A stretch of 64,000 nucleotides of DNA, from contig OZ253457.1 of NCBI GenBank assembly GCA_965261285.1, forward strand, positions 2,857,396 to 2,921,395, read 5' to 3'. This document shows, piece after piece, positions 19,958 to 45,294 of this stretch (positions within the stretch are counted from its first letter, which is position 1; each line of letters opens with the position of its first letter). The notes under the pieces were generated by a model. That model saw only the letters and a list, made by a program, of their open reading frames with translations, was not told where the DNA came from and made no database searches. The stretch is from Vicinamibacterales bacterium. Its GTDB lineage: Bacteria > Acidobacteriota > Vicinamibacteria > Vicinamibacterales > UBA8438. Both the position numbers and the translations under genes were made by a program.

Positions 19958-19959
19958 GG

Positions 19960-26014: not shown

Positions 26015-26140
26015 CCGCTTTCGACCCTAGCAGAGACCGCCCCGATGTGGCAAGGAGCGCGGGAGCCCGACCTCCGGGGGGGTCGCCCGGGGCGGGCGCG
26101 CTTGACTTGGAATCGCCTTTGCATCTTCAATAGGTGGGTG

Positions 26141-26419
26141 ATGCAGTCGAAGCGGGGCACCGCAGTGCTCATCGTGCTCGCGATGGTCGCGCTCGCGACG
26201 CTGGGCATCGCGCTCCACCAGCACGACGCCACCGCACAGACCGCCGCCCACGCCGACTGCGACGCCTGTCACTTCCGGCACCTGTCGGGAATTGCACCGG
26301 ACGGCACGCCCGCGCCGTCCGCGCCGGATCTCGTCGCCCACGCCGTCGCGACCGCCCGCCCCGGCGGCGAACGCGCCACGGCTCTGGGCATCCGTCCCAC
26401 GCGCGGCCCGCCCGCGTAG
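26141..26419 (+). CDS. small exported Cys/His protein, R-G-P-P-A C-terminus (family B, copy 3)
   Basis: MQSKRGTAVLIVLAMVALATLGIALHQHD...HADCDACHFRH...TRGPPA. It is divergent to copy 2. A TTGACT hexamer at 26102 may be the -35 element. Confidence 0.6.
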   Translation: MQSKRGTAVLIVLAMVALATLGIALHQHDATAQTAAHADCDACHFRHLSGIAPDGTPAPSAPDLVAHAVATARPGGERATALGIRPTRGPPA

Positions 26420-26563
26420 CCGCCTCGTCGCGCTCCTGCGACACCCCACGCACTCACGTATCGCTCGTTGCCCGGACCGCCATCCGTGTACGTGCAGGCG
26501 CCAGAGCCTGCCGGCGCGCCGGGTTCCACGTCAGGAATCGTTCCAACAACGGAGGAGAAGCTC

Positions 26564-27514
26564 ATGTCGCGTCTTCGCGGAGAACCGCTCGTCTCTCGAT
26601 GCATGGCCGCCAGCGCGCTGCTGGCCGGATTCATGGCCGGCGCAACGGCCACCCGCGCGCAGGCCCAGGAAGCGGCCGATCAGCCCTTCATGGCGGGCGC
26701 GCCGCTCGACCTGTCGTCGAACGCCAGGACCTTCGGCGGCTTTCGCTTCGCCGAGAGCATGGCCTACGACGAGGCGCGCGACCTGTACGTCGCGGTCAAC
26801 GCCGGAATCGCCCAGGACGTCATCCCGAACGACGGCTACATCTCGCTGATCAACCCCGACGGCTCGGCCCACACGCTGAAGTGGATCGGCGTCGACCGGA
26901 ACGGCCTGACCCTGAACCACCCCCTCGGCAGCGACATCGTCAACGGCCTGCTGTACGTGGCCGACATCAACGTCGTGCGCTGGTTCGACATGGAGAGCGG
27001 CGAGCCGCGGGGCAGCGTCGTCGTCGAGGACGCGCAGCGGTTCAACGACATCGAGGTCGCCGAGGACGGGACCATCTGGGCCACCCAGACCGGGACCGAG
27101 GAGAGCGCCACCTGGCGCGTGTACCGCATCGGGCCCGACGGCGACTCGTCGGTCGTGGTCGAGGGCGCGCCCCTCGCCCGGCCCAACGGCGTCGCCTTCG
27201 ACCCCGACGGCAACATCGTCGTCGTGAACATCAACGACAACGCGGTGCTCACGTTCTCGCCCGACGGCGAGCTCGTCGCGACCGAGCACGCGGTGGACGG
27301 CGGCAACGACGGGCTGGTGATTCTGGACGACGGCACGAAGTACGTCTCCAGCGTCCGGATCGGCACCGTCTCGCGCATCCGTCCGGGGGAGGAAGCGGAG
27401 GTCGTGGCGTCCGGCATCCCGAGCGCCGCCTCGATGGCCTACGACTCGAAGCGGAACCGGCTGCTCATCCCGATGAACAACTGGAACGCCATCACCATCG
27501 TCGAGCTCGACTGA
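26564..27514 (+). CDS. secreted SMP-30/gluconolactonase/NHL-like six-bladed beta-propeller protein
   Basis: RBS ggaggag with ATG 26564. It has a signal peptide. Contains PNGVAFDPDGNIVVVN and repeated blade-like segments. The stop is 30 nt before CobN-like 1. Confidence 0.7.
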   Translation: MSRLRGEPLVSRCMAASALLAGFMAGATATRAQAQEAADQPFMAGAPLDLSSNARTFGGFRFAESMAYDEARDLYVAVNAGIAQDVIPNDGYISLINPDGSAHTLKWIGVDRNGLTLNHPLGSDIVNGLLYVADINVVRWFDMESGEPRGSVVVEDAQRFNDIEVAEDGTIWATQTGTEESATWRVYRIGPDGDSSVVVEGAPLARPNGVAFDPDGNIVVVNINDNAVLTFSPDGELVATEHAVDGGNDGLVILDDGTKYVSSVRIGTVSRIRPGEEAEVVASGIPSAASMAYDSKRNRLLIPMNNWNAITIVELD

Positions 27515-27544
27515 CCCGGCCGCCGCAACAGACGAGGTGACCCG

Positions 27545-30500
27545 ATGACTGCCACGACAAGACCGACACGAGTGCGGACGGTGCGGACGCGACTGGCCGA
27601 CCTGTGGTCCTATCGCAGGCGCATCCTGGCCGCGGCGCTCGCGGCGGCGGTGCTCTGGGGCGGGTTCGCCGCCTACCAGCGCCATCTCGCGGTGACCCGG
27701 GTCGCCTTCGTCAACTTCCCCGGATTCCAGCTCGCCCGCATCGAGCGCGCGCGCCCGCACGGCGCGGTGCGCATCGAGCCGCTGGACATGGCGGCGCTGG
27801 ATCGCGCCGCCGACTATCCCGTCGTCTACGTCTTCGGGCGCGGCCTGCAGCTCGACGAGACGCAGCTCGAGCACCTGCGCGAGGCCGGCCGCCGCGGGAC
27901 GCGCCTGTTCGTGCAGGGGGCCACGAACCCGGCCCTCGACGTCACCAACCTGCGCGGCACGCAGCTCGACGCGGCCAACGGCTACCTCGAGTTCGGGGGG
28001 GCCGAGAACTACGCCCGGCTGCTCAACTTCTCGCGCGTGGAGCTCGACGGCAAGCCGTTCCGGTCGGACGCGGTCGAGCCTCCCGTCGAGCGGTCCATGG
28101 ACGTGCTGTTCCACCTCGACGACGACCTGACGTTCGAGACCGTCGACGCGTTCGACGCCTACTACGACGCGCAGGGGCTCGCCAAGCCGGACGCCCCGAA
28201 GATCGCCCTCATCACGAGCGTGCCCGGCCCCTTCAACGCCAACCGGGACCACGTCGACGCGTTCATCCGCGCCCTCGAGGGCCGCGCGTGGAACGTCTAC
28301 CCGATGGCCAGCGCCGAGAAGCGCCTCGACTTCCTCAAGCGCATCGACCCCGACCTCGTGGTGCTGATGCCGCACGGGCGGCTCACTCTCGGCCGCGCCG
28401 ACGAGGCCATCGCGTGGCTGCGCGAGCGCGACATCCCGATGCTGACGCCGGTGTCGGTGTTCCAGAACCACGACGACTGGGTGACCGACCAGCAGGGCAT
28501 GGCGGGGGCCATGCTCACGATGAGCGTCGTCCTGCCCGAGCTCGACGGCGGGGTGGCCCCCTACGCGGTGGCGGCGCAGTTCACCGACGCGGACGGCTAC
28601 GAGATCTTCGACGCGCTGCCCGAGCGCCTCGAGACCTTCTGCGACCTCGTCGAGGGCTGGCTGACATTGAAGGCGAAGCCCAACCGCGACAAGCGGGTGG
28701 CCATCTACTACTACAAGGGACCGGGCAAGAACGCCATGAACGCCGGCAGCCTGGAGGTGGCGCCGAGCCTGCTCAACCTGCTGCGCTCGCTGCGCGACGC
28801 CGGCTACACGGTCGAGGGGCTGCCGGAGACCGACGACGAGTTCTGGGAGATGGTCCAGGCGAAGGGGCCGGTGCTCGGACCCTACGCGCGCGGAGCGTTC
28901 GAGGAGTACGTGGCCACCGGCGATCCGGCCCTGGTGCCGGCCGGCGACTACGCCGCGTGGGTGGAGGCGGACCTCGAGCCGGGCATGCGCGACGCCGTCG
29001 TCGAGCAGTACGGCCCCGCCCCCGGCGAGTACATGACGGTCGGCGAGGGCGAGGAGACGGCGCTGGCCGTCGCCCGCGTGCAGTTCGGCAACGTCGTCAT
29101 CCTGCCGCAGCCCCTGCCGGGGGCCGGCGACGACACGTTCCGGCTCGTGCACGGCGCGCGGAAGGCGCCGCCGCACCCCTACGTCGCCTCGTACCTGTGG
29201 ACCCGCAACGCCTTCGGGGCCGACGCGGTGATGCACTTCGGCACCCACGGCAGCCTGGAGTTCACGCCGTGGAAGCAGATTGCCCTGTCGGCCTTCGACT
29301 GGGCGGACGCCCTCGTCGGCGGGCTCCCGCACGTCTACGTCTACGTCATGAGCAACGTCGGCGAGGGCATCATCGCCAAGCGCCGCTCCTACGCGGCCAC
29401 GGTGACCCACCTGACGCCGCCGTTCATGGAGGGCGGGCTGTACGACGGGCTGCGCCCGCTGCGGGACCGGCTCGACAGCTTTCGCAACGCGGCCGACGGC
29501 CCGGTGCGGGCCGAGCACGCGCGCACGGTCCGGCGCCTCGCGACGGAGATGAACCTGCACGTGGACCTCGGCCTCGACCCCGACGCGGCGTGGTCGGCGG
29601 ACGAGATGTTCCGCCTGAGCAACCACGTCGAGACCATCGACGGGGAGAAGGTCACGCAGGGGCTCTACACCCTCGGCAGCGCCTTCACGCCGGACGAGGT
29701 CGACTCGACGGCGGAGCTGATGGCCATCGACCCCATCGCCTACGCCCTCGCCCGCATCGACACCGTCAAGGGCGCGGTCGAGGCCGCCGACCTCGAGGAC
29801 GAGGCGTACTTCGAGCGCCGCTACCGCCGGCGCGCCCGCGACGCCTACGCGCGGCGGATCGCGGGCGCGAACGCCGGGGCGGTGCTCGCCGACCTCGTGG
29901 CGGACGCGGACGTGCAGCACGCCCACGCCTGGCGCGAGGCGTCGCGGCGGCCGTCGGACGACGACATCATCCGCGGCTTCATCTCGATGGGGGCGGGCGG
30001 ACGGAGCCGGCCGGACGCCGCGGTGGCGGAAGCCCGCGCGGGCGAGCTCGAGGACCTCGTGGCGCGCGTCCTGCCGCACCCGCGGAAGGTGGAGTTCGTC
30101 GAGCGGCTGCAGTCGGAGCAGGAGTTCGCGCGGACGTCGCAACTGCTCGATCCGGTGCAGCGCGAGCGCGCCAGGACCATCGCCGCGGTCATCCCGCCGA
30201 TGGCCGAGGCGCTCGAGATCGCCGACGACCCGGACGTGTTCGCGCTGCTCGAGGCCATGCAGGACGAGGCCCTCCGCGAGCGGACGTTCGCGCTGCTGGA
30301 CGACCCGGGGCTCGTCGACCGCGTCGAGGAGGAGAAGCGCCGGCTGGCGTCGGAGCGGCTGGCGTTCGCCCTCGAGGCGCCGCAGGTCGACGCCCTCGGG
30401 CTGGCCTGGGGCCACGAGTCGGCCGGCGAGCTGGAGAGCGTTCCCAGCAAGGACATCGAGGGGGCGCTCTCGGCGGTGGCCTTCTACCGGGAGCACCGCG

Positions 30501-32332
30501 CGACGCTCCGCGACCAGCTTCACGACGTCGACGCGCCGGCCGCGGATCGCCTGCGGAAGATCCTGGACGACCCGGCGTTCGACCCGCGCCTCGCCGCCGC
30601 CGCCGACGCCGCCGGCGTCGAGCTGGAGGCGCGCGCGGCCCGCGACGCCGAGCTGGCCCGGGCGGTGCTGACGCTGGAGACGAGCGTGGGCGGCATCGAC
30701 CGGCACCGAAAGGGCCTGCGCGACAGCTCGGACCTCGAGCTCGAGAGCGTGGCGCGGGGCCTCGCCGGCGGCTACGTCGAGCCCACGCCGGGGGGCGACC
30801 CCATCGTCAACCCCGATGCCGTCCCCACCGGGCGCAACCTCTTCTCCATCGACGCCGAGAAGACGCCGTCGCCGGAGGCGTGGACGGTGGGGCGCGGCCT
30901 GGCGGAAGCGCTCCTCGACGAGCACCGGCGGCGCCACGACGCGTATCCCCGGAAGGTCGCGTTCACCCTCTGGCCCAGCGACTTCATCGGCACGGAGGGC
31001 GCCACCATCGGCCAGATCTTCTACCTGCTCGGGGTCGAGCCGGTGTGGGACCCGTTCGGGCGGGTCGCCGACCTGCGGCTGATGCCCGCCGCCGACCTCG
31101 GAAGGGCCCGCATCGACGTCGTGGTCCAGACCGCCGGCCAGCTCCGCGACCTCGCCGCCTCGCGCCTCGCCCTCATCAACCGCGCCGTCGCCATGGCGGC
31201 CGAGGCGCGCGACGCCGAGGCCAACTTCGTGCAGGAGGGGCGGGTGCGCGCCGAGGAGGTGATGATGGCCAGGGGCCTCTCCCCCGCCGACGCGCGGCGC
31301 TACTCGACCCTGCGCGTCTTCGGCGGCGTGAACGGCAACTACGGCACCGCCATCATGGGAATGGTCGAGAGCGGCGACCGCTGGGAGGACGACGCCGAGG
31401 TCGCCGACCAGTACCTCCGGAACATGGGCGCCGTCTACGACGAGGGCGAGCTGTGGAGCTTCTACGCCGACGGCATCTTCGAGGCGGCCCTCGCCGGCAC
31501 CGAGATCGTCGTGCAGCCTCGGGAGAGCCACACCTGGGGCGCGTTGAGCCTCGACCACGTCTACGAGTTCATGGGCGGGCTGAGCATGGCCGTCCGCCAC
31601 GTCACCGGCCGCGACGCCGACGCCTACTTCAACGACTTCCGCAACGCCCAGCGGCCGCGGGTGACGGACCTCACCGAGACCGTCTGGACCGAGGCGCGGT
31701 CGACGCTGCTGAATCCCGCCTACATCGGCGAGATGCAGGAGGGCGGCGCCTCGTCGGCCGAGCAGTTCGCCGAGACGTTCCGCAACACCTACGGCTGGAA
31801 CGTGATGAAGCCGGCCGCGATCGACGACGCGCTCTGGAACGAGCTGTACGAGGTGTACGTCGACGACCGCCACGACCTCGGGGTCCACGACTTCTTCCGG
31901 CGGGAGAACCCGTACGCCCTGCAGGAGATGACGGCGGTGATGCTGGAGACGGTGCGCAAGGGCCTGTGGGAGGCCACCGCGCAGCAGGTGGCGGTGCTCG
32001 CGGAGCTGCACACCCGGCTGGTGGAGGAGTTCGAGGCGGGCTGCAGCGGGTTCGTCTGCGACAACGCGGCCCTCGCGTCGTTCATCGCCGAGCAGGCCCC
32101 GGCGGAGCTGGCGGCCGCCTACCGCAGCGAGCTGCAGCGCAACCTGACCACGAGCGTCGAGCTGACCGAGGCGAGCGTGGTCCTGGCCGCGCAGGACGCG
32201 GAGCCGCGGCCGGCCGACGCGCCGGCGAGCCGGCCGGGCCCGGCGCGCCTCGCCTGGCTGGGCGCGATCGTCGTGGCGGGTCTGTTCGCGACGGCGCTGC
32301 TCGTCCTGCGGCGGCGGCGGAGCACGAGCTGA
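27545..32332 (+). CDS. CobN/Mg-chelatase-H-like giant protein 1 (1595 aa) with N- and C-terminal transmembrane anchors
   Basis: CobN family blocks VAIYYYKGPGKNAMNAG, VMHFGTHGSLEFTPWKQ and GGYVEPTPGGDPIVNPDAVPTGRNLFSIDAEKTPSPEAW. N-terminus RRRILAAALAAAVLWGGFAAY. C-terminus LGAIVVAGLFATALLVLRRRRSTS. Confidence 0.9.
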   Translation: MTATTRPTRVRTVRTRLADLWSYRRRILAAALAAAVLWGGFAAYQRHLAVTRVAFVNFPGFQLARIERARPHGAVRIEPLDMAALDRAADYPVVYVFGRGLQLDETQLEHLREAGRRGTRLFVQGATNPALDVTNLRGTQLDAANGYLEFGGAENYARLLNFSRVELDGKPFRSDAVEPPVERSMDVLFHLDDDLTFETVDAFDAYYDAQGLAKPDAPKIALITSVPGPFNANRDHVDAFIRALEGRAWNVYPMASAEKRLDFLKRIDPDLVVLMPHGRLTLGRADEAIAWLRERDIPMLTPVSVFQNHDDWVTDQQGMAGAMLTMSVVLPELDGGVAPYAVAAQFTDADGYEIFDALPERLETFCDLVEGWLTLKAKPNRDKRVAIYYYKGPGKNAMNAGSLEVAPSLLNLLRSLRDAGYTVEGLPETDDEFWEMVQAKGPVLGPYARGAFEEYVATGDPALVPAGDYAAWVEADLEPGMRDAVVEQYGPAPGEYMTVGEGEETALAVARVQFGNVVILPQPLPGAGDDTFRLVHGARKAPPHPYVASYLWTRNAFGADAVMHFGTHGSLEFTPWKQIALSAFDWADALVGGLPHVYVYVMSNVGEGIIAKRRSYAATVTHLTPPFMEGGLYDGLRPLRDRLDSFRNAADGPVRAEHARTVRRLATEMNLHVDLGLDPDAAWSADEMFRLSNHVETIDGEKVTQGLYTLGSAFTPDEVDSTAELMAIDPIAYALARIDTVKGAVEAADLEDEAYFERRYRRRARDAYARRIAGANAGAVLADLVADADVQHAHAWREASRRPSDDDIIRGFISMGAGGRSRPDAAVAEARAGELEDLVARVLPHPRKVEFVERLQSEQEFARTSQLLDPVQRERARTIAAVIPPMAEALEIADDPDVFALLEAMQDEALRERTFALLDDPGLVDRVEEEKRRLASERLAFALEAPQVDALGLAWGHESAGELESVPSKDIEGALSAVAFYREHRATLRDQLHDVDAPAADRLRKILDDPAFDPRLAAAADAAGVELEARAARDAELARAVLTLETSVGGIDRHRKGLRDSSDLELESVARGLAGGYVEPTPGGDPIVNPDAVPTGRNLFSIDAEKTPSPEAWTVGRGLAEALLDEHRRRHDAYPRKVAFTLWPSDFIGTEGATIGQIFYLLGVEPVWDPFGRVADLRLMPAADLGRARIDVVVQTAGQLRDLAASRLALINRAVAMAAEARDAEANFVQEGRVRAEEVMMARGLSPADARRYSTLRVFGGVNGNYGTAIMGMVESGDRWEDDAEVADQYLRNMGAVYDEGELWSFYADGIFEAALAGTEIVVQPRESHTWGALSLDHVYEFMGGLSMAVRHVTGRDADAYFNDFRNAQRPRVTDLTETVWTEARSTLLNPAYIGEMQEGGASSAEQFAETFRNTYGWNVMKPAAIDDALWNELYEVYVDDRHDLGVHDFFRRENPYALQEMTAVMLETVRKGLWEATAQQVAVLAELHTRLVEEFEAGCSGFVCDNAALASFIAEQAPAELAAAYRSELQRNLTTSVELTEASVVLAAQDAEPRPADAPASRPGPARLAWLGAIVVAGLFATALLVLRRRRSTS
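30696..32332. repeat. 1.64-kb dispersed repeat (copy 1): near-identical 3' portions of the two CobN-like genes
   Basis: Colinear with 40541-42177 at a constant offset of 9845 nt, checked at 30696/40541 and 31791/41636. Long runs are identical by eye, whereas the upstream gene parts are clearly more diverged. Confidence 0.85.
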
Positions 32333-32575
32333 CGCGGGCGCGCCGACCGTCGGCGCATCCCGCGATGAACGGTTCGGAATTCGCGACGGTGCTGCTCGTC
32401 CTGCGGAGACGGCCGAGCACACCGGACGCGGGCGCGCGCCGACCGTCGGCGCATCCCGCCATGAACGGTTCGGGACTCGCGACGGCGCTGCTCGTCCTGC
32501 CGGAGACGGCCGAGCACACCCTAACCGGGCGCGCGCCGTTGGTGCACCCCGCGACGAACGGTTCGGGATCTGGAG
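32296..32575. repeat. 3 x ~95-bp tandem echo of the CobN-like 1 3' end and the downstream spacer
   Basis: gctgctcgtcctgc starts at 32296, 32391 and 32487. gatgaacggttcgg also recurs. The last unit runs into the RBS of the next gene. Confidence 0.9.
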
Positions 32576-32581
32576 AACATC

Positions 32582-34867: not shown

Positions 34868-35100
34868 GCCGGGCGTATCCGTCCCGTCAGGACGGGAGCT
34901 CATCCGCATCGAGCGCGGCGGGGCAACGGGGGGCTGAGGCGGGCGAACCCGTCCCGTCGGGACGGCCCGAGAGCCGCTTCGCATCGGGCGCGGCGGCGAC
35001 CGAGCCGGGCGAGCCCGTCCCGTCGGGACCGGCCGGGCGCCGATCCGCATCGGGCGCGGCGGCGACCGAGCCGGGCGAATCCGTCGCCGCGCAAGCAGGA
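34815..35100. repeat. 4-unit tandem echo (66-75 bp) of the double-propeller gene 3' end, each unit with a hairpin
   Basis: gcatcg anchors lie at 34836, 34906, 34981 and 35047. The functional TGA at 34865 is echoed at 34935. Palindromes of the ccgtcccgtcgggacgg type occur in each unit. Confidence 0.9.
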
Positions 35101-35119
35101 GCCATCGCAAGCACGAGCC

Positions 35120-35401
35120 ATGACGAAGCCGAGCCGGCCCATCGCATCCGCGGCCTTGGTGCTGGCGTGCGTCCTGCTGCCGGCCGGCTTCCTCTCGCAC
35201 GGACACGACGACCGCGATCTCGACGGCCACGATCACGACTGCATCGTCTGCTGTCTCCTCGACCATCCCACCCTGGCGACGGCGGCCGAGCCCGCGCCGG
35301 CGGCGCCGGCCGCGCTGGCGCCTGGCGCCGCTTCGGCCCGCCGCGGGCGCGTCTTGCGGACCGCGCTCGACCCGCACCTCCCCCGCGGGCCGCCCGCCTG
35401 A
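35120..35401 (+). CDS. small exported Cys/His protein, R-G-P-P-A C-terminus (family B, copy 4)
   Basis: MTKPSRPIASAALVLACVLLPAGFLSHGHDDRDLDGHDHDCIVCC...LPRGPPA. It lies immediately upstream of TBDR 2. Confidence 0.6.
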   Translation: MTKPSRPIASAALVLACVLLPAGFLSHGHDDRDLDGHDHDCIVCCLLDHPTLATAAEPAPAAPAALAPGAASARRGRVLRTALDPHLPRGPPA

Positions 35402-35529
35402 CACCTCCCGTCGCCGCGTCGACCCGGACGCCCTCACGAGAGCGCCCGCGTGTCGGCCATCGAACCGTGGGAAACGGCGGAAGCTCGCCGGCCGAGGAGC
35501 CGCGTGCGCGACCGCCGCGGAGGTGTGAA

Positions 35530-37959: not shown

Positions 37960-38112
37960 GGAGCCCGGGCGAGGAACGACGCGGGCTTCCGGGCAGCGGC
38001 GTTCCTCGCGCCGGGACTTGCGGACCGGCGAACGTCACGACGCGACTGCAAGGACGTGCGGCAACCATTGGCGGACCAGGTGGACGGGGCGGAACGGCAG
38101 AGGAGCAGGGTG

Positions 38113-41100
38113 ATGACGGAAGCGACGAGACGGACGGGCACGCTATTGCGTCTCTTCGGGCCCGCGGCGCGCCGGAGGACGATTCTGCTGGCCGTCCTCG
38201 CGCTGGCCGCGATCGGAACCGCGGCCGGGATCTACCGGCACTTCCTCGCGCCGACCCGGATCGCGTTCGTCAACTTCCGGGGCGTCCAGCTCGCCCGGCT
38301 CGAGAGGGCCCGCGGAGACCAGGCGGTCCGCATCGAGCCGCTCGCCCTCGACGCCCTCCATCGCGCGGCGTCCTACCCGGTCGTGTTCGTGCACGGGCGC
38401 GGGCTGGAGCTGCAGGAGACGCACATCGAGCAGCTTCGCGAGGCGGGGCGGCGCGGCTCACGGCTGTTCGTTCGCGGCGTATCGAACCCCGAGCACGACG
38501 TCACCAACCTGGGGGGGCGGCAGCTCGAGCACGTCGGCGGGTACTTCCGGTTCGGGGGCACGGAAAACTACGCCCGGCTGCTCAACTTCTCCCGCGCCGA
38601 GCTCGACGGCAAGGCGTTCCGGTCGGATCCGGTGCAGCCTCCCGCCGAGCGGGCGATGGACGTGCTCTTCCACCTCGACGACCGCCTGACGTTCGAGACC
38701 GTCGACGCCTTCCGCGCCCACTACGAGGAGCAGGGACTGGCCAAGCCGGGGGCCCCGACCATCGCGCTTCTCACCAGCGTGCCCGGCCCCTTCAACGCGA
38801 ACCGGGACCACGTCGATGCGATCATCGAGGCCCTCGAGGCACGCCAGTGGAACGTCTTCCCGATCGCGAGCAACGACAAGCGGCTCGATTTCCTGCAGGC
38901 GATCGAGCCGGATCTCGTGGTCCTGATGCCCCACGGCCGCCTCTCCCGGGGACGCTCGCGCGAGGCGATCGCGTGGCTCCAGGAGCGGAACATCCCGATG
39001 CTGACGGCCCTGTCCGTCTTCCAGAACCACGACGAGTGGGTCGCCGACCAGCAGGGCATGGCCGGCGGCCTGCTGACCCTCAGCGTGGTGCTGCCCGAGC
39101 TCGACGGCGGGGTCGCGCCCTACGCGGTGGCGGCGGAGTTCGAGGACGAGTACGGCTACGAGATCTTCGACGTGATACCCGAGCGGCTCGAGGTCTTCTG
39201 CGACCTCGTCGAACGGTGGCTGGCCCTGAAGGCCACGCCCAACCGCGACAAGCGCGTGGCCATCTACTACTACAAGGGCCCCGGCAAGAACGCGATGGTC
39301 GCGAGCAACATGGAGGTCGCGCCGAGCCTCCTGAACCTGCTGCGCACGCTGCGCGACGCCGGCTACACGGTCGAGGGGCTGCCGGAGACCGAGGACGAGT
39401 TCTGGGAGATCATCCAGGCGCAGGGGCCGGTGCTCGGGCCGTACGCGCGCGGGGCGTTCGAGGAGTACGTGGCCGAAGGGGACCCCGCCCTCGTGTCCGC
39501 CGCCCAGTACGCGGAATGGACCGAGGAGCACCTCGAGCCGGCGATGCGCGAGGCGGTGGCCGCGGCGTACGGGCCCGCCCCCGGGGAGTACATGACGGTC
39601 GGCAGCGGCGACGACGACGCCATCGCGGTCGCCCGCGCGCAGTTCGGCAACGTGGTCGTCCTCCCGCAGCCGATGCCGGGGGTGGGCGACGACACGTTCC
39701 GCCTCGTGCACGGGACGCTCGAGGCGCCGCCGCATCCCTACGTGGCGTCGTACCTGTGGACCCGGCGCGCGTTCGAGGCCGACGCGGTGATGCACTTCGG
39801 CACCCACGGGAGCCTGGAGTTCCGGCCCTGGAAGCAGATTGCCCTGTCGTCGTTCGACTGGTCGGACGCCCTCATCGGCGGGATCCCGCACGTCTACCTC
39901 TACATCATGAGCAACGTCGGCGAGGGCATCATCGCCAAGCGGCGTTCCTACGCGGCCACCGTCACCCACCTCACCCCGCCCTTCATGGAGGGCGGCCTCT
40001 ACGAGGGGCTGCGCCCGCTGCGCGACCGGCTCGACCGCTACCGCAACACGGCGGACGGCCCGGTGAGGGCGGAGCACGCCAGGACCATCCGGCGCCTCGC
40101 CGCGGACATGGACCTGCACGTGGACCTCGGCCTCGACCCCGAGGGCGCCTGGTCCGACGACGACTACTTCCGCCTGAGCAACCACGTCGAGACGATCGAC
40201 GGGGCGAAGGTCGTGCAGGGCTTCTACACGCTGGGCGAGGCGTTCAACGACGACGAGATCCACGGGACGGCGGAGCTGATGGCGATCGACCCGATCGCCT
40301 ACGGCCTCGCCCGCATCGACATCGCCAAGGGCGTGGCCAAGAGCGACATCCTCGACGACGCGGCGCTCTTCGAACGCCGCTACCGGCAGACCGCGCGGCG
40401 GGCCTACGCGCGGCGGGCGGGCGGAGAGAGCGTCGAGGCGGTGCTGTCGGACCTCGTCTCCCCGGCCGACCTCGAGCAGGCCCACGGGGAATCGAAGCTC
40501 GCGGATCCGCTTCTCGTGCTGAAGGCGGGCGTCGCCGGCGTCGACCGTCACCGGAAGGGCCTGCGCGACAGCTCGGACCTCGAGCTCGAGAGCGTGGCGC
40601 GGGGCCTCGCCGGCGGCTACGTCGAGCCCACGCCCGGGGGCGACCCCATCGTCAACCCCGACGCCGTCCCCACCGGGCGCAACCTCTTCTCCATCGACGC
40701 CGAGCAGACGCCGTCCCGGGAGGCGTGGACGGTGGGGCGCAGGCTGGCCGAGTCTCTCCTCGACGAGCACCGGCGGCGCCACGACGCCTGGCCCCGGAAG
40801 GTCGCGTTCACCCTCTGGCCGACCGACTTCATCGGCACCGAGGGCGCCACCATCGGCCAGATCTTCTACCTGCTCGGGGTCGAGCCGGTCTGGGACCCGC
40901 GCGGGCGGGTCGGCGACCTCCGCCTGATTCCCTCGGCCGACCTCGGCCGGCCCCGCATCGACGTCGTGGTCCAGACCGCCGGCCAGCTCCGCGACCTCGC
41001 CGCCTCGCGCCTCGCCCTCATCAACCGCGCCGTCGCCATGGCGGCCGAGGCGCGCGACGCCGAGACCAACTTCGTGCAGGAGGGACGGCTGCGCGCCGAG

Positions 41101-42177
41101 GAGGTGATGATGGCCAGGGGCCTCTCGCCCGCCGACGCCCGGCGCTACTCGACCCTGCGCGTCTTCGGCGGCGTGAACGGCAACTACGGCACCGCCATCA
41201 TGGGAATGGTCGAGAGCGGCGACCGCTGGGAGGAGGACTCGGAGGTGGCCGACCAGTACCTCCGCAACATGGGCGCCGTCTACGACGAGGGCGAGCTGTG
41301 GAGCTTCTACGCCGAGGGCATGTTCGAGGCGGCCCTCGCCGGCACCGAGATCGTCGTGCAGCCGCGGCAGAGCCACACCTGGGGGGCGCTGAGCCTCGAC
41401 CACGTCTACGAGTTCATGGGCGGGCTGAGCGCGGCCGTCCGCCACGTGACCGGCCGCGACGCCGACGCCTACTTCAACGACTTCCGCAACATGAACCGGC
41501 CGCGGGTGACGGACCTCGAGGAGACGATCTGGACCGAGGCGCGGTCGACGCTGCTGAACCCCGCCTACATCGGGGAGATGCAGGAGGGCGGCGCCTCGTC
41601 GGCCGAGCACTTCGCCGAGACGTTCCGCAACACCTACGGCTGGAACGTCATGAAGCCGGCCGCCATCGACGACGCGCTCTGGAACGAGCTGTACGAGGTG
41701 TACGTCGACGACCGCCACGACCTCGGGGTCCACGACTTCTTCCGGCGGGAGAACCCGTATGCCCTGCAGGAGATGACGGCGGTGATGCTGGAGACGGTGC
41801 GCAAGGGCCTGTGGGAGGCCACCGCGCAACAGGTGGCGGTGCTGGCGGAGCTGCACACCCGGCTGGTGGAGGAGTTCGAGGCGGGCTGCAGCGGCTTCGT
41901 CTGCGACAATGCGGCCCTGGCGTCGTTCATCGCCGAGCAGGCGCCGGCGGACCTCGCGGCGAGCTATCGGAGCGAGCTGCGGCAGGCGCTGACGACGAGC
42001 GTGGAGCTGGCCGAGGCGAGCGTGGTCCTGGCCGAGCAGGACGCGGAGCCGCGGCCGGCCGACGCGGCGGCGGCCCCGCCGACCCCGGCGCGCCTCGCGT
42101 GGCTGGGGGCGGCCCTCGCCGCGGGCCTCTTCGTGCTCGCGCTGCTCGTCCTGCGCCGGCGGCGGAGCACGACCTGA
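38113..42177 (+). CDS. CobN/Mg-chelatase-H-like giant protein 2 (about 1354 aa) with N- and C-terminal transmembrane anchors
   Basis: RBS gaggag with ATG 38113. It has the same CobN blocks as copy 1. N-terminus RRRTILLAVLALAAIGTAAGIY. C-terminus LGAALAAGLFVLALLVLRRRRSTT. It lacks about 220 aa of Ala/Asp/Arg-rich insert present in copy 1. Confidence 0.9.
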   Translation: MTEATRRTGTLLRLFGPAARRRTILLAVLALAAIGTAAGIYRHFLAPTRIAFVNFRGVQLARLERARGDQAVRIEPLALDALHRAASYPVVFVHGRGLELQETHIEQLREAGRRGSRLFVRGVSNPEHDVTNLGGRQLEHVGGYFRFGGTENYARLLNFSRAELDGKAFRSDPVQPPAERAMDVLFHLDDRLTFETVDAFRAHYEEQGLAKPGAPTIALLTSVPGPFNANRDHVDAIIEALEARQWNVFPIASNDKRLDFLQAIEPDLVVLMPHGRLSRGRSREAIAWLQERNIPMLTALSVFQNHDEWVADQQGMAGGLLTLSVVLPELDGGVAPYAVAAEFEDEYGYEIFDVIPERLEVFCDLVERWLALKATPNRDKRVAIYYYKGPGKNAMVASNMEVAPSLLNLLRTLRDAGYTVEGLPETEDEFWEIIQAQGPVLGPYARGAFEEYVAEGDPALVSAAQYAEWTEEHLEPAMREAVAAAYGPAPGEYMTVGSGDDDAIAVARAQFGNVVVLPQPMPGVGDDTFRLVHGTLEAPPHPYVASYLWTRRAFEADAVMHFGTHGSLEFRPWKQIALSSFDWSDALIGGIPHVYLYIMSNVGEGIIAKRRSYAATVTHLTPPFMEGGLYEGLRPLRDRLDRYRNTADGPVRAEHARTIRRLAADMDLHVDLGLDPEGAWSDDDYFRLSNHVETIDGAKVVQGFYTLGEAFNDDEIHGTAELMAIDPIAYGLARIDIAKGVAKSDILDDAALFERRYRQTARRAYARRAGGESVEAVLSDLVSPADLEQAHGESKLADPLLVLKAGVAGVDRHRKGLRDSSDLELESVARGLAGGYVEPTPGGDPIVNPDAVPTGRNLFSIDAEQTPSREAWTVGRRLAESLLDEHRRRHDAWPRKVAFTLWPTDFIGTEGATIGQIFYLLGVEPVWDPRGRVGDLRLIPSADLGRPRIDVVVQTAGQLRDLAASRLALINRAVAMAAEARDAETNFVQEGRLRAEEVMMARGLSPADARRYSTLRVFGGVNGNYGTAIMGMVESGDRWEEDSEVADQYLRNMGAVYDEGELWSFYAEGMFEAALAGTEIVVQPRQSHTWGALSLDHVYEFMGGLSAAVRHVTGRDADAYFNDFRNMNRPRVTDLEETIWTEARSTLLNPAYIGEMQEGGASSAEHFAETFRNTYGWNVMKPAAIDDALWNELYEVYVDDRHDLGVHDFFRRENPYALQEMTAVMLETVRKGLWEATAQQVAVLAELHTRLVEEFEAGCSGFVCDNAALASFIAEQAPADLAASYRSELRQALTTSVELAEASVVLAEQDAEPRPADAAAAPPTPARLAWLGAALAAGLFVLALLVLRRRRSTT
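40541..42177. repeat. 1.64-kb dispersed repeat (copy 2), partner of 30696-32332
   Basis: See copy 1. The offset is a constant 9845 nt. Confidence 0.85.
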
Positions 42178-42440
42178 CGCCCGGAAGCCATGGAGGCGGT
42201 ACTCGACGTCGTCGCCGGAACCGGCGTGGTCCTGCTCCCGTTGCTCGCGCTGCTCGTCCTGCGCCGACGGCAGAGCACGACCTGACGCGTGGAAGCCATG
42301 GAGGCGGTACTCGACGTCGTCGCGGGAACCGGCGTGGTGCTGCTCGCGCAGCTCGTCCTGCGAAGGCGGCGGAGCACGACCTGACGCGTGGAAGCCATGG
42401 AGGCGGTACTCGACGTCGTCGCCGGAACCGGCGTGGTCCT
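42140..42440. repeat. 3-unit tandem echo (108 and 99 bp) spanning the CobN-like 2 stop and the start of the next gene
   Basis: TGA occurs at 42175, 42283 and 42382. ATGGAGGCGGTACTCGAC occurs at 42190, 42298 and 42397. The two upstream copies form in-frame chimeric mini-ORFs of 31 and 28 aa. Confidence 0.9.
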
Positions 42441-43089
42441 GCTCCTGCTGGCGGCGGCGTCCGTCGACCGGCGGTGGGCGCGGGGGCTGGCCGTGGCCGC
42501 GGTCGCCGCCGCCGTCTACGCCCTGCACCCGCTCGCGGTGCGTCAGAGCCTGACCGCGTTCGTCGGCGGGCTCGACGGCGCCGGCGTCCAGACGCTGGCC
42601 GCCCTGCTCGCGTTCGACGGCGTGCTCGGCTGCGGCGGAGTCGCCCTCCTGCTCGGGGCCCGGCACGGCCGGCGGCTGCGCTGGTTCGAGCGGCTGGCGG
42701 CGCGCCACGTCGGGATCATCCCCGCGCCGGCCCTGTTCTACGTGGAGGTGAAGGCGTTCCACGCGGCGTCGGGGTGGACCTTCTCGACCACCGCGCTCGC
42801 GCTGTGCCTCGCCGTCGTCGTCGCGGGCATGGGCGGCAGCGAGGCGATTCGGCGGCTGCTGCCGGACCGGGACCTCCGGGCCGAGCTGCGCCTGCTCGTG
42901 CACGTCGGGCAGGTGGTGCTCGCGGCCGGACTGACCGCGTTCGCGCTGCAGGGGGGAGTTCGGAGCCCCGGGGCCGCGGTCGAGGCCGGGCCCCTCGCCG
43001 TCGTCGCCGCCGCCGCGGCCCTCGGCATCCTCGCCGGCTACTGGAGCCATCGCCGGCGCCTGCGCCGCCTCGCGGACCTGGGACGATGA
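42397..43089 (+). CDS. polytopic inner-membrane protein, unknown family
   Basis: MEAVLDVVAGTGVVLLLLAAA... It has several hydrophobic helices and ends WSHRRRLRRLADLGR. I recognised no motif. Confidence 0.6.
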   Translation: MEAVLDVVAGTGVVLLLLAAASVDRRWARGLAVAAVAAAVYALHPLAVRQSLTAFVGGLDGAGVQTLAALLAFDGVLGCGGVALLLGARHGRRLRWFERLAARHVGIIPAPALFYVEVKAFHAASGWTFSTTALALCLAVVVAGMGGSEAIRRLLPDRDLRAELRLLVHVGQVVLAAGLTAFALQGGVRSPGAAVEAGPLAVVAAAAALGILAGYWSHRRRLRRLADLGR

Positions 43090-43313
43090 TCGAAACAAGG
43101 CTGCCGACTTCGCCCACCCGCGGCCCGTATTCTGAGATTCCCCGCGCTTGGCGTGGGCGGGTAGCTTCCGTCAAGCGTCCTGGGACAGTGCCCGATACAG
43201 GATTGCCGACCTCAACCGAACGCAGCCTGTTGGCGTGGGCGGGTAGCTTCCGTCAAGCGTCCTGGGACAGTGCCCGATACAGGATTGCCGACCTCAACCG
43301 AACGCAGCCTGTT
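43068..43313. repeat. tandem echo of the membrane-protein gene 3' end; the last two 82-bp units are identical
   Basis: Units 43150-43231 and 43232-43313 are identical on reading. They align with decay to the functional end (gcggacctgggacgatgatcgaaacaaggctgccgac versus gcgtcctgggacagtgcccgatacaggattgccgac). Confidence 0.85.
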
Positions 43314-43330
43314 CCCTGCGGGCTGCTGCA

Positions 43331-43482
43331 CCTGGCGCCCGGCAAATGATCTCCGTCGACATCCCTGAACCATGGAGCCGCTGACTCGCGCCCTGTACCT
43401 GCTCTACCTGGCGCCCGGCCAGATGCTCTCCGTCGACATCCCTGAACCATGGAGCTGCTGACACGCGCCCTGTACCTGCTGT
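43331..43482. repeat. 2 x 76-bp tandem duplication of the 5' end of the exbB-like gene
   Basis: cctggcgcccggc...ccctgaaccATGGAG occurs at 43331 and 43407. The upstream ATG (43373) opens a 29-codon uORF that stops 9 nt past the real ATG 43449. Confidence 0.85.
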
Positions 43483-44099
43483 CGACCGGCCTGCTCGTGC
43501 CGGTCATCGTCGTGCTGCTGATTCTCTTCGGCCGGTCGCTGCTGCTCGTCGGGCGCACCTACGGTGCCTGGTTGTCGCGGCTTCGCTTCCGGGCCGCGCT
43601 GCGGCCGCTGCTCGACCGGCTCGACCGCGGCAACGTGGAGGCGGTGCTGCGGGACGCCGACCTCCCCCCCGAGCCGCGGTGGGCGCCGGCCATCGGGCGC
43701 CTGCTCGACCACGGCGCCTCGGCGGCGCAACGCGAGAAGGTGCTCGCCGACTTCGAGGCCGGCTGCGAGACCGATCTCGCGCCGGCGCGGACCATGGCGC
43801 GGCTGGGCCCGATGCTCGGCCTGATGGGCACCCTCATCCCGATGGGCCCCGCCCTCGTCGGACTGGCCGCCGGCGACATCGTGGCGATGGCCGAGAACCT
43901 GCAGGTCGCCTTCTCGACCACCGTCGTGGGGCTCTTCGTCGGGGGCATCGGCTTCGCCGTCCAGCAGGCGAAGCAGCGTTGGCACACCGAGGCGCTCAAC
44001 GATCTCGAGTTCGTGAGCGGCCTCGTCGGCGAGCGGGCGGGCGCGCCCGAAGAGGGGGCGGTTGCCCCCCCGGCCATGCGGCGTTCCGCGCGGGCGTGA
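43449..44099 (+). CDS. MotA/TolQ/ExbB proton-channel family protein
   Basis: LARLGPMLGLMGTLIPMGPALVGLAAGD...LQVAFSTTVVGLFVGGIGFAVQ is the conserved channel core. Confidence 0.85.
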   Translation: MELLTRALYLLSTGLLVPVIVVLLILFGRSLLLVGRTYGAWLSRLRFRAALRPLLDRLDRGNVEAVLRDADLPPEPRWAPAIGRLLDHGASAAQREKVLADFEAGCETDLAPARTMARLGPMLGLMGTLIPMGPALVGLAAGDIVAMAENLQVAFSTTVVGLFVGGIGFAVQQAKQRWHTEALNDLEFVSGLVGERAGAPEEGAVAPPAMRRSARA

Positions 44100-44149
44100 C
44101 TCGTTGGCGAACGCGGGCAGGCGGGGCATGCCCGGAGAAGGAGGATCGA

Positions 44150-44497
44150 ATGGCTGGCAGAAGACGGCGGCGCAGAATCGGCGCCTCGCTCCACGACGAC
44201 AGCGACCCCCTCGGCGCCATCGCGAACCTGTTCGACGTCGCGATGGTCTTCGCGGTGGCCCTCATGGTCGCGATGGTCAGCCGCTGGCAGTTGACGGAGT
44301 TCCTCACGCAGGAGGACTTCACGATGGTCAAGAACCCCGGCACGGCCGAGATGGAGATCATCACGCAGGAGGCGGGCGAGATCACCCGCTACCGGGCCGA
44401 GGACGTGGACGACGCGGCGGGGCGCCGCGGCCGGCGGGTCGGCATCGCCTACCAGCTCGAGAGCGGAGAGATCATCTACGTGCCGGAAGCGCCGTGA
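44150..44497 (+). CDS. DUF2149-like single-pass membrane protein (ExbD-position partner)
   Basis: RBS ggagaaggagga. MAGRRRRRRIG...DPLGAIANLFDVAMVFAVALMVAMV is followed by a soluble tail. This matches my recollection of DUF2149, which usually follows MotA/ExbB-like genes next to CobN-like genes. Confidence 0.7.
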   Translation: MAGRRRRRRIGASLHDDSDPLGAIANLFDVAMVFAVALMVAMVSRWQLTEFLTQEDFTMVKNPGTAEMEIITQEAGEITRYRAEDVDDAAGRRGRRVGIAYQLESGEIIYVPEAP

Positions 44498-44574
44498 CCG
44501 CGGCCCGCGTCGGGCGGGCGGCTATAATCGGCGACATCGAAAGACGGAACGCCAATGGACCCGGGAGGTTTCAG

Positions 44575-45294
44575 ATGAAGATGATGCGATTGAGATCGGT
44601 GGCGGCGGCGGCCCTCCTCGTGGCGGGCGTGGCGACGATGGCGGCGGCGCAGGCCCTGCCCATCGACCCGTCCCGCTACGAGGGCGCGATTCAGGCGTTC
44701 GAGGCGGCGGACCGCGAGAACATGCCCCCGCCGGGCGCGATAGTCGTCACCGGCAGCTCCAGCATCGCCCGATGGAACGACGCGATGCCCGCCGCCCTCG
44801 CTCCCCTCTCGGTCATCCCCCGCGGGTTCGGGGGCAGCGCCATGGCCGACGTGCTGCACTTCGTCGACCGCGTCGTCATCGCGTACCAGCCGCGGGCGGT
44901 CGTCATCTACGAGGGCGACAACGACACCGGGCGGTTCATGGTGCCGCCGGCCACGATCGCGTCCGAGCTCGAGCAGATCATCGCCGCGGTCCACGCCGAG
45001 CTGCCCGACACCCGCGTCTACGTCATGTCGGTGAAGCCGAGCCTCGCCCGCGTGGCGGTGTGGGACAAGGCGCAGGAGACCAACGCGCTGTACCGCGAGG
45101 TCGCGGCGGCCGACGAGCGCGTGCACTACATCGACGTCGCCACCCCGTTCCTCCAGGCGGACGGGACGGTGATGGACGACATCTTCATCGACGACGGCCT
45201 GCACCTCAACGAGAAGGGCAACCGTATCTGGGCCTCGACCATCAAGGCGGCCCTGATGGCCAACGAGGCGCAGTTCGAGTCGACCAACGACTGA
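44575..45294 (+). CDS. secreted SGNH/GDSL-type hydrolase
   Basis: RBS gggagg. Signal peptide MKMMRLRSVAAAALLVAGVATMAAAQA. Block I VVTGSSSI, GG block RGFGGS, block V DDGLHLN. Confidence 0.85.
   Translation: MKMMRLRSVAAAALLVAGVATMAAAQALPIDPSRYEGAIQAFEAADRENMPPPGAIVVTGSSSIARWNDAMPAALAPLSVIPRGFGGSAMADVLHFVDRVVIAYQPRAVVIYEGDNDTGRFMVPPATIASELEQIIAAVHAELPDTRVYVMSVKPSLARVAVWDKAQETNALYREVAAADERVHYIDVATPFLQADGTVMDDIFIDDGLHLNEKGNRIWASTIKAALMANEAQFESTND

Follow-up and report, generated by a model that had tools for sequence, protein, structure and literature searches.

A predicted Hmu-type import and dechelation cluster with two HmuS-like proteins and four CruR/DUF2946-like leader reading frames in a Vicinamibacterales genome

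Introduction

HmuS, a membrane-bound and NADH-dependent member of the hmuYRSTUV operon, converts heme to protoporphyrin IX and Fe(II), a chemistry that has been demonstrated anaerobically (PMC12583661). Its heme dechelatase activity was reported as recently as 2025, in a study that also drew attention to many unaccounted-for homologues beyond the Bacteroidota (PMC12583661). In the Porphyromonas gingivalis operon, HmuR is annotated as a TonB-dependent receptor (TBDR), HmuS as CobN, HmuT as hypothetical, HmuU as MotA/TolQ/ExbB, and HmuV as DUF2149 (PMC11681262). Here we analyze a 64,000-nucleotide (nt) stretch of DNA, the window, from a Vicinamibacterales bacterium (UBA8438; GCA_965261285.1, OZ253457.1:2,857,396-2,921,395), in which two HmuS-like genes lie in a cluster of this type, flanked by small leader-like open reading frames (ORFs) and a divergent transport arm. 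All coordinates are window positions.

Zur-regulated "CobN-like" operons have been counted among zinc-starvation regulons for ten years without being given a function. PA1922-PA1925 of Pseudomonas aeruginosa, a Zur-regulated operon that is induced 45- to 147-fold by zinc depletion and ranks near the top of the response to zinc starvation (PMC4542158, PMC9431628), is likewise left without a function in the literature (PMC4542158, PMC9431628, PMC11761036). In Caulobacter crescentus, znuK and znuGHI encode a Zur-repressed TBDR and ABC-2 transporter needed under zinc starvation (PMC4176598).

A third known system is regulatory. CruR of Bordetella pertussis is described as a nascent peptide that senses copper through a CXXC motif, carries a C-terminal RAPP arrest motif 45 residues from it (45 ± 1 to 2 in the family), and regulates Rho-dependent termination upstream of a gene for a TonB-dependent transporter (PMC9426467). 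CutF of Rhodobacter capsulatus, a DUF2946 homologue, undergoes copper-induced stalling (bioRxiv 10.1101/2025.02.05.636593). A link to copper is not universal in the family, as the first gene of the Caulobacter czr zinc-efflux operon is also a DUF2946 gene. As we read it, the locus described here links HmuS-type dechelation, the "CobN-like" clusters of Zur regulons, and control by DUF2946 arrest peptides.

Results

The window has a G+C content of 72%, and its nearest genomes are Vicinamibacterales metagenome-assembled genomes (Acidobacteriota) of up to 97% identity. Frame analysis of third-position G+C (GC3) showed that plus-strand coding continues without a break between about 26.1 and 45.3 kb, with no credible minus-strand gene in that range. 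An original prediction, made from the sequence of the window, had set out the order and families of 11 plus-strand genes in this range; Pfam and GC3 agreed with it throughout, g8 being a gene without a Pfam family. We refer to these genes as g1 to g11 and to the divergent minus-strand genes as u0 to u5. The plus-strand features are as follows.

26141..26419, plus strand: g1, CruR/DUF2946-like leader ORF (regex scan, hydropathy)
26564..27514, plus strand: g2, exported SGL/NHL six-bladed-propeller-type protein (Pfam SGL, E 1e-12)
27545..32332, plus strand: g3, HmuS1, long-form HmuS-like protein of 1595 amino acids (aa) (Pfam CobN-Mg_chel, E 1e-291)
29930..30634, plus strand: domain-IV insertion of HmuS1, ~235 aa (gap in the g3/g7 alignment)
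32582..34867, plus strand: g4, exported double propeller, Kelch at the N terminus and PQQ_2/BamB-like at the C terminus (Pfam)
35120..35401, plus strand: g5, DUF2946/CruR leader ORF heading TBDR2, HmuS2, and HmuTUV (Pfam DUF2946)
35530..37959, plus strand: g6, TonB-dependent receptor 2 (TBDR2), HmuR position (Pfam CarboxypepD_reg, Plug, and TonB barrel)
38113..42177, plus strand: g7, HmuS2, short-form HmuS-like protein of 1354 aa (Pfam CobN-Mg_chel, E 3e-299)
42397..43089, plus strand: g8, six-transmembrane (TM) inner-membrane protein, HmuT position (six hydrophobic segments)
43449..44099, plus strand: g9, MotA/ExbB-family proton-channel protein, HmuU position (Pfam MotA_ExbB)
44150..44497, plus strand: g10, DUF2149 single-TM protein, HmuV position (Pfam DUF2149, E 3e-30)
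44575..45294, plus strand: g11, exported GDSL/SGNH hydrolase, the final gene (Pfam Lipase_GDSL_2)

Both giants, g3 and g7, match the CobN profile, the check that the original prediction had proposed, and both are homologues, by sequence, of the HmuS heme dechelatase. Their top match in the Protein Data Bank (PDB), by far, is 9d26, HmuS of Bacteroides thetaiotaomicron: g7 aligns to it with an E of 0 and 1225.7 bits, compared to 368 for ChlH and 355 for CobN. At the same time, both fall under every NCBIfam CobN/BchH equivalog cutoff (666 versus 1248 bits for NF004644 and 611 versus 829 for BchH). Identity to Bacteroidales loci by tblastn is 38 to 47% (about 44% to a Bacteroides sp. HmuS homologue in locus L035), which is below the family criterion of at least 50% identity to B. 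thetaiotaomicron HmuS. Because the prototype has been characterized biochemically and structurally (PMC12583661; PDB 9d26), the earlier remark that no mechanism was established for any protein of this kind no longer holds.

Published HmuS-defining residues were mapped onto g3 and g7 and across all relatives compared, which comprised 78 loci from Bacteroidota, Lentisphaerota, Verrucomicrobiota, Planctomycetota, Proteobacteria, and Vicinamibacteria. The HFGTHG motif (His-538; HFGTHGSLEF) and Glu-577 (NVGEG) occur in both giants and are invariant in the relatives, and both giants also contain LSLDHVYEFMGG (Asp-1208, His-1209, and Glu-1212; the LSLDHxxEFMGG motif). Of the two site-1 heme ligands, His-254 (HGR) is kept and Met-79 is replaced by Arg. 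Arg-79 is shared by all Vicinamibacteria, Sphingobacterium, Cytophagales, and most proteobacterial relatives; Met-79 prevails in gut-type Bacteroidales loci, and one Bacteroidales/Prevotellaceae subgroup combines Arg-79 with Met at 254. Five cleft residues described as strictly conserved in HmuS and predicted to bind propionates, Ser-1014, Ser-1067, Gln-1198, Ser-1199, and Trp-1202 (PMC12583661), read P, A, Q, S, W in g7 and P, A, E, S, W in g3. We also considered an "IMGMVE" sequence at the Na2/metal-exit site as a sign of soft-metal preference and dropped it, as Met-1142 is found in many Bacteroidota HmuS proteins too.

By hydropathy, both HmuS copies are predicted to have a single TM segment at each terminus; the predicted numbers for g8, g9, and g10 are six, three, and one. 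With TM anchors flanked by Arg clusters, the positive-inside rule places the bulk of HmuS1 and HmuS2 in the periplasm, as a prediction. Neither CobS/CobT/ChlI/ChlD-type AAA+ genes nor corrin or chlorophyll pathway genes were present among the window ORFs scanned. Both the absence of these partners and the view that the giants are not canonical cobaltochelatase subunits had been put forward originally, and the scores far below the CobN/BchH equivalog cutoffs agree with that view. Like CobN and ChlH/BchH, the giants belong to the PF02514 superfamily and have a six-domain body, His-538, and HFG(T/A)HG; unlike them, they are predicted to be membrane anchored and to face the periplasm, have no AAA+ or pathway genes nearby, and presumably run the reaction in reverse. 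One candidate for a ChlD-like partner, a convergent VWA-domain gene (45578-46744, minus strand), was rejected: it has no AAA+ match and looks membrane anchored. Its tblastn matches were confined to close relatives, with none in L001.

The arrangement around HmuS2 reproduces that of the hmu operons. Genes g6 to g10 correspond to hmuR-S-T-U-V in order, family, and direction (compared with PG1552-1556), and in 62 of the 78 loci the HmuS-like gene has ExbB-like and DUF2149 neighbors, most of the other 16 being truncated contigs. Recurrence of a TBDR/CobN-like/ExbB-like/DUF2149 neighborhood elsewhere had been stated in the original prediction, which proposed testing its conservation, and the comparison bears it out. 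Homologues of g9 beside HmuS-like genes are 38 to 51% identical. The inner-membrane protein g8 has no Pfam or NCBIfam match, but its 24 to 29% identical tblastn matches lie right after hmuS in Bacteroidales loci, as expected for HmuT. TBDR2 scores best against the TonB-hemin subfamily of NCBIfam (205 bits; cutoff, 317) and has no informative relatives outside the class Vicinamibacteria. Orthology of TBDR2 to Bacteroides HmuR or to Zur-linked betaproteobacterial TBDRs was considered and rejected, the similarity being at plug level only (23 to 39%). A FRAP...H...NPDL "heme receptor" motif in TBDR2 was also discarded as nondiscriminating, since it occurs in TBDR1 and many unrelated TBDRs; canonical Bacteroides HmuR homologues often have Met instead of His in it. 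The Pfam scan of the cluster found no HmuY (PF14064), and a DUF2946 leader ORF stands first instead.

Compared with hmuYRSTUV of P. gingivalis (PG1551-1556, PMC11681262) and B. thetaiotaomicron (PMC12583661), the window thus shares the order and families of R-S-T-U-V and differs in having two HmuS paralogues, propellers, a GDSL hydrolase, and DUF2946 leaders and in lacking HmuY in the cluster. At the level of the enzyme, B. thetaiotaomicron HmuS and the giants have in common two TM anchors, HFGTHG, LSLDHxxEFMGG, His-538, His-1209, Glu-577, Glu-1212, and His-254, whereas the giants have Arg-79 and Pro/Ala at positions 1014/1067, with a helical domain in place of the insertion in HmuS1 and no insertion in HmuS2. 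The hosts differ as well, in that a high-G+C soil acidobacterium takes the place of an anaerobic heme auxotroph.

The order g1-g2 is repeated in L004, L024, and L038, and on the truncated contig L023 a g2 homologue lies ahead of the long-form HmuS gene; g2 also matches the NCBIfam ScyD/ScyE family below its cutoff. A link between this propeller and the Sphingobacterium operon was not upheld: an SGL gene adjoins that operon, but it has no detectable similarity to g2. Gene g11 is kept after DUF2149 in L001, L021, L024, L045, and L055, and both g4 and g11 are missing from some relatives. Other PQQ-type propellers are encoded in the window at 14241-15830, where a PQQ_2 protein lies beside a cupin and an amidohydrolase, and at 57495-60566 (a full-length PQQ dehydrogenase of ~1,000 aa, minus strand), so propellers are common in this genome and the mere presence of g4 carries less weight.

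A separate observation concerns possible substrates. In L080 (Thalassotalea psychrophila), a long-form HmuS-like/HmuT/U/V cluster without a neighboring TBDR is preceded, at a distance of about 4 kb, by a Pfam Chlorophyllase gene (5206-6231) and other alpha/beta hydrolases. Together with the g11 esterase, this hints at ester-bearing tetrapyrroles (chlorophyll derivatives) as substrates, and it may be coincidence.

The two HmuS copies are unevenly diverged. Protein identity between g3 and g7 is 75% over the N-terminal 795 residues and 91% over the C-terminal 520, with corresponding nucleotide identities of 72 to 91% in the N-terminal part and 90 to 98% in the catalytic C-terminal half, a pattern indicating that the catalytic half has undergone gene conversion or is under strong joint constraint. 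A methionine-rich, disordered insertion in domain IV is regarded by the authors of the B. thetaiotaomicron study as the hallmark separating HmuS from chelatases (PMC12583661). HmuS2 has no such insertion, its alignment to 9d26 skipping from 745 to 897 across about 15 query residues. HmuS1 carries ~235 aa at this site that are acidic, helical, and, counting Met by eye, methionine poor, with motifs conserved across phyla. An AlphaFold2 model of this segment (pLDDT 83, all helices) predicts with confidence a folded, all-helical domain, which had no fold match in the PDB at an E of ≤0.001.

Relatives with a single HmuS (L038, L010, L015, and L024) have the order g1-g2-g5-TBDR-HmuS(long)-T-U-V, to the extent that each locus covers them. 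In L004, both copies lie between the TBDR and hmuT, and the layout of the window is shared by L001, L002, L003, L016, L021, and L055. Because of these layouts, the long form reads as ancestral, and the short form as a derivative that lost the insertion in one lineage. The Kelch/PQQ gene g4 occurs solely in relatives with the duplication, always after the long form. The original prediction spoke of a duplicated module, which overstates the case: hmuS alone occurs twice, there is one copy each of hmuT, hmuU, and hmuV, and the two TBDRs share ~35% identity over ~230 residues only.

The junction that follows HmuS2 is itself repeated.

42134..42453, plus strand: HmuS2 stop/hmuT start junction, tandem triplication with a period of ~100 to 108 nt (Tandem Repeats Finder; translation)

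This triplication creates two extra mini-ORFs, MEAVLDVVAGTGVVLL...LVLRRRRSTT-stop, before hmuT, and the same junction is repeated in L024, L045, and L055.

Two small Cys/His proteins had been read as accessory parts of the envelope machinery. They fit instead the leader class described for DUF2946/CruR (PMC9426467), and there are four of them. A six-frame scan of the whole 64 kb with the pattern C..C.{38,50}R[AG]PP.{0,4}-stop returned exactly four ORFs, g1, g5, u0, and u2, each heading one unit of the cluster. The first, g1, has CDAC, a 44-aa spacing, and RGPPA-stop and heads the SGL propeller and HmuS1; g5 has CIVC, the same spacing and ending, and a His-rich stretch; u0 has CTAC, 44 aa, and RGPPA-stop; and u2 has CVLC, 42 aa, and RAPPA-stop. 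His residues surround CXXC in all four (HxHD...CxxCH). Hydropathy peaks that would represent a signal or TM segment span residues 7 to 25 of g1 and 8 to 26 of g5, and the N termini of u0 and u2 are Ala/Leu rich after Arg residues, that of u2 falling under the 1.6 hydropathy threshold. Of the two plus-strand proteins first noticed, g5 reaches the gathering score of Pfam DUF2946 (PF11162; 24.3 bits versus 23.7), whereas g1 scores below it (9.6 bits) despite having all the family motifs; u0 and u2 have no Pfam match. These four ORFs are most likely CruR/DUF2946-type metal-sensing leader (arrest) peptides and would act as regulators.

Leader ORFs recur at syntenic sites in 12 Vicinamibacteria loci, with CXXC, spacing, and RGPPA fixed while the remaining sequence diverges. 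The g5-type leader is conserved in 11 Vicinamibacteria loci, g1 in L004, L024, and L038, and u2 at the equivalent site of L038. Spacers of 128 nt (g5), 144 nt (g1), 216 nt (u2), and 267 nt (u0, to TBDR1) follow the leaders. The first ~70 nt of the g1 spacer are C rich and G poor by eye, and it folds no better than shuffled sequences; the u2-u3 spacer alone of the four folds better than shuffles (z = -2.1), and it contains one feature of note.

22473..22519, minus strand: GC-rich hairpin and U-rich tract, candidate attenuator (RNA fold of the u2-u3 spacer)

The leaders resemble CruR (Bp2923) and CutF in being small exported first ORFs before a TonB-dependent transporter, with CXXC, a spacing of ~45, R-A/G-P-P, and a long spacer (PMC9426467). 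They differ in having RGPP rather than RAPP in three of four cases, His-rich surroundings of CXXC, and four copies per locus. The RGPPA variant resembles the SecM RAGP motif cited in the CruR report (PMC9426467), and the HmuS-like and ABC-2 genes downstream of the leaders belong to families not named in its synteny section. That report describes the family mostly from Proteobacteria, whereas the window is from an acidobacterium.

Outside Vicinamibacteria, the 78 loci contained a single leader-pattern ORF, at 4298-4465 of L019 (Isosphaeraceae, Planctomycetota); it ends in RAPPRSGV and sits just downstream of an HmuS-like gene. The pairing of leader ORF and HmuS-like gene may extend beyond Acidobacteriota.

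Two of the four leaders belong to a divergent arm on the minus strand.

18093..20012, minus strand: u5, second ABC-2-type permease (68% identity over 486 aa at the syntenic L038 site, tblastn)
19960..21390, minus strand: u4, ABC-2 permease with DUF3526 domain (Pfam ABC2_membrane_2 and DUF3526)
21655..22428, minus strand: u3, ABC transporter ATPase (Pfam ABC_tran)
22645..22914, minus strand: u2, CruR/DUF2946-like leader ORF heading the ABC-2 genes (regex scan)
23066..25441, minus strand: u1, TonB-dependent receptor 1 (TBDR1) (Pfam CarboxypepD_reg, Plug, barrel)
25709..26014, minus strand: u0, CruR/DUF2946-like leader ORF heading TBDR1 (regex scan; hydrophobic N terminus read from the sequence)
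26015..26140, no strand: divergent control region between u0 and g1 (sequence reading; palindrome and consensus scans)

TBDR1 has as its best NCBIfam match the zinc-piracy receptor ZnuD (203 bits, far under the cutoff of 950). Homologues of u3 are 54 to 57% identical in the gammaproteobacterial loci L030 and L056, where u4 homologues adjoin HmuS-like clusters too, and L038 (Vicinamibacteria) has the ABC-2 arm together with the g1-g2 pair and the g5 leader. The arm resembles znuK/znuGHI at the level of architecture and Pfam families: both join a TBDR to one ATPase and two permeases of the ABC-2 type and lack a solute-binding protein, but in the window its parts are preceded by DUF2946-like leaders and not by a Zur box.

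Two peculiarities of these genes stand apart. The u5 ORF runs in frame into a 55-residue Pfam HicA_toxin match (residues 581 to 635), followed by a possible HicB-like ORF (17643-18092), and the tail would reflect gene fusion, loss of a stop codon, or a nested start site. The TBDR1 coding region contains at 23857-23951 an in-frame 21-nt tandem repeat (4.7 copies, 96% identical) that yields a 7-residue protein repeat.

Scanning of 17 to 46.5 kb found no Fur, Zur (three consensus types), or AT-rich palindrome in the cluster, and the Zur/Fur/CsoR boxes suggested originally did not turn up there. A sigma-70 scan assigned no consensus promoters, and terminators were no more frequent than in shuffled sequences, with one weak terminator-like hairpin (45278-45292) at the end of g11. 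Hexamers resembling TTGAC(17)TAnnnT face both ways in 26015..26140; such elements precede g1, u0, and u2 and do not precede g5.

In three betaproteobacterial long-form loci (L079, L082, and L044; the genera are Comamonas, Pollutimonas, and Cupriavidus), the shared TBDR/HmuS-like promoter contains ATGTTATAACAT-like palindromes, which we take to resemble Zur boxes of the Escherichia coli consensus. Those of Comamonas and Pollutimonas also sit among FUR-family, COG0523, FolE2, ZnuABC, and ZnuA/DUF1007/NicO genes. The mention in the original prediction of a P. aeruginosa cluster induced by zinc limitation proved accurate and corresponds to PA1922-25 (PMC4542158, PMC9431628). That operon, too, combines a TBDR, a CobN-like protein, an ExbB/ExbD-family protein, and DUF2149, which makes it alike in architecture; its known association is with trace-metal starvation and not with B12 synthesis, and it has a Zur box, where the window has leader ORFs. 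A search seeded with a Pseudomonadales relative gave no match named P. aeruginosa among the matches listed, most of which carried no name.

Discussion

We propose that the locus encodes an Hmu-type system of TonB-type import and periplasmic dechelation induced by scarcity of zinc or copper, a reading to which we give about an even chance. TBDR2 would import a metal-loaded macrocycle, most likely a metalloporphyrin or related tetrapyrrole, across the outer membrane, with the proton-channel pair of HmuU (MotA/ExbB-like) and HmuV (DUF2149) and the six-TM HmuT energizing import. The membrane-anchored, periplasm-facing HmuS1 (long) and HmuS2 (short) would then pull the metal from the ring. The system would be built only when a thiophilic trace metal is scarce, as the leader peptide of each of the four units (export signal, His-rich CXXC, 42 to 44 residues, R(G/A)PP-A-stop) would sense the metal and gate the genes downstream, and the divergent TBDR1 and ABC-2 arm would belong to the same regulatory set. 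We infer the direction of the reaction, the tetrapyrrole substrate, the identity of the metal, and the CruR-like action of the leaders. At a more general level, the earlier description of a proton-motive-force-coupled envelope machine for a metal or metallo-cofactor is fair.

As to the metal, zinc seems the leading candidate, if somewhat short of an even chance, with copper a little less probable, iron unlikely, and any other metal less likely still. Zinc is suggested by the Zur-box-like palindromes and zinc islands of the betaproteobacterial relatives, by ZnuD as the nearest family to TBDR1, by the znuK/znuGHI-like layout of the arm, and by PA1922-25. Copper is suggested by the two experimentally studied DUF2946 leaders, both of which sense it. 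Against iron stand the lack of HmuY in the cluster, the change of Met-79 to Arg, the missing methionine-rich insertion, and the lack of a Fur box.

Several observations weigh against the proposed zinc- or copper-responsive dechelation system. The sole characterized relative acts on heme iron, anaerobically, with NADH, and the best family match of TBDR2, although subthreshold, is to heme receptors. Arg-79 alone does not exclude heme, because an Arg-79 Sphingobacterium relative sits in a full operon that includes an HmuY hemophore-like gene. The zinc link rests on proteobacterial neighborhoods and architecture, both studied DUF2946 leaders sense copper and not zinc, and of the four leader ORFs only g5 scores above the Pfam threshold. 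The cluster has no TonB gene, and the proposed mechanism does not account for the propeller proteins g2 and g4 or the GDSL hydrolase g11.

Some of these points form the case for conventional heme-iron acquisition, in which TBDR2 would import heme, HmuS1 and HmuS2 would release Fe(II) and protoporphyrin IX, and the leaders would be secondary, for example as a shutoff at high copper. The nearest characterized homologue being a heme dechelatase, the gene order identical to hmuRSTUV, the conserved catalytic residues and His-254, the TonB-hemin score of TBDR2, and the pairing of Arg-79 with HmuY in Sphingobacterium are all consistent with it. We nevertheless regard it as unlikely. In addition to the features just listed against iron, Ser-1014 and Ser-1067 of the cleft have become Pro and Ala, CXXC leader peptides are not known to be linked to iron, and long-form orthologues lie in zinc-starvation islands or behind Zur-box-like palindromes. 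Members of the host lineage are aerobic soil bacteria, whereas the HmuS chemistry was shown anaerobically. A somewhat less probable account keeps the trace metal and discards the enzyme, treating the CobN-like proteins as periplasmic metal-binding or gating parts of free-ion (Zn2+/Co2+/Cu) import through a TBDR. The literature treats PA1922-25 as a possible zinc or cobalt ion importer, TBDR1 resembles ZnuD, a receptor of zinc-ion uptake, and class I chelatases have head and neck domains reminiscent of periplasmic binding proteins (PMC12583661). However, His-538, Glu-577, Asp-1208, His-1209, and LSLDHVYEFMGG (with Glu-1212) are invariant in the deep alignment, most central-cleft residues checked are kept (exceptions Ser-1014, Ser-1067, and Gln-1198), and the catalytic half is 90 to 98% identical between the paralogues; the invariant motifs and the conserved catalytic half argue for selection on an active site rather than simple ion binding.

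That the giants are forward chelatases, which with AAA+ partners from other parts of the genome would insert metal into a tetrapyrrole (cobalamin, chlorophyll, or another cofactor), strikes us as highly improbable. The strong CobN-Mg_chel match and the database label "cobaltochelatase subunit CobN" borne by relatives would favor it, but the scores below every CobN/BchH equivalog cutoff do not, and the predicted periplasmic topology would leave the proteins with no ATP and no AAA+ motor. CobS/T, ChlI/D, and pathway genes are missing among the scanned ORFs of the 64 kb, the only nearby VWA protein has no AAA+ match and is not found downstream in L001, and the obligate neighbors are a TBDR and the ExbB-like/DUF2149 pair. 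Nearly as improbable is a chance assembly of unrelated transcription units, for which one could cite gaps of up to 359 nt with no consensus promoters or terminators assigned and the absence of g4 and g11 from some relatives. Against this, the core of TBDR, HmuS, HmuT, HmuU, and HmuV is syntenic across phyla, the g1-g2 pair, g5 leader, and ABC-2 arm recur in L038 (the ABC-2 genes also in L030 and L056), the same rare type of leader ORF stands on all four units, and the long gaps are mostly recent tandem duplications.

A broader and more doubtful suggestion can be added. The Arg-79, insertion-bearing HmuS branch may be made up of dechelatases that work in the periplasm and strip imported metallo-tetrapyrroles or similar macrocyclic chelates of zinc or copper instead of iron. 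Such metal piracy would also account for the Zur-regulated CobN-like clusters found in Pseudomonas, Comamonas, and Cupriavidus. DUF2946 arrest peptides would stand in for the Zur box in Vicinamibacteria, and either some of them would sense zinc or the system would be rewired to copper. The environmental branch of HmuS retains its catalytic center without the heme-specific features, and it would be wired to zinc through Zur boxes or to thiol-based, metal-sensing leader peptides according to lineage. The locus would also extend DUF2946/CruR-type leaders to Acidobacteriota and to a new class of target genes, with four leaders in one locus being unusual.

Other features of the window

Gaps between the cluster genes range from 30 to 359 nt, which does not fit the "short gaps" first reported, and several of them are tandem duplicates of the 3' end of the preceding gene. 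Tandem duplications were found at 1107-1333, 3882-4110, 32285-32566, 34823-35085, 42134-42453, 43148-43313, 43323-43480, 50127-50318, and 53389-53593, and also in L055, L045, L024, and L023. They sit in or at the edges of intergenic regions and, within the cluster (32285-43480), on gene junctions, with periods of 66 to 113 nt, two to three copies (five in L055), and 84 to 100% identity. The duplicated content comprises the last codons, stop codon, spacer, and sometimes the next start codon, so that decoy mini-ORFs arise, and it makes up much of the "intergenic" DNA of the cluster. Copy number varies between close relatives (L001, 97% identical, has none at those junctions), and the density is 0.61 per 10 kb in Vicinamibacteria loci versus 0.04 elsewhere.

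A minus-strand gene at 53595-55454 encodes four LysM domains and DUF5715, its LysM units corresponding to a 201-nt tandem repeat of 2.9 copies (53766-54358). At the end of the window, in a region of lower G+C (0.67 to 0.70), 60863-64000 contains a MazF/PemK toxin gene and, immediately after it, a gene for a Type ISP restriction-modification enzyme (N6_Mtase, Type_ISP_C) that is cut off by the end of the window, and this segment may be a mobile or defense islet.

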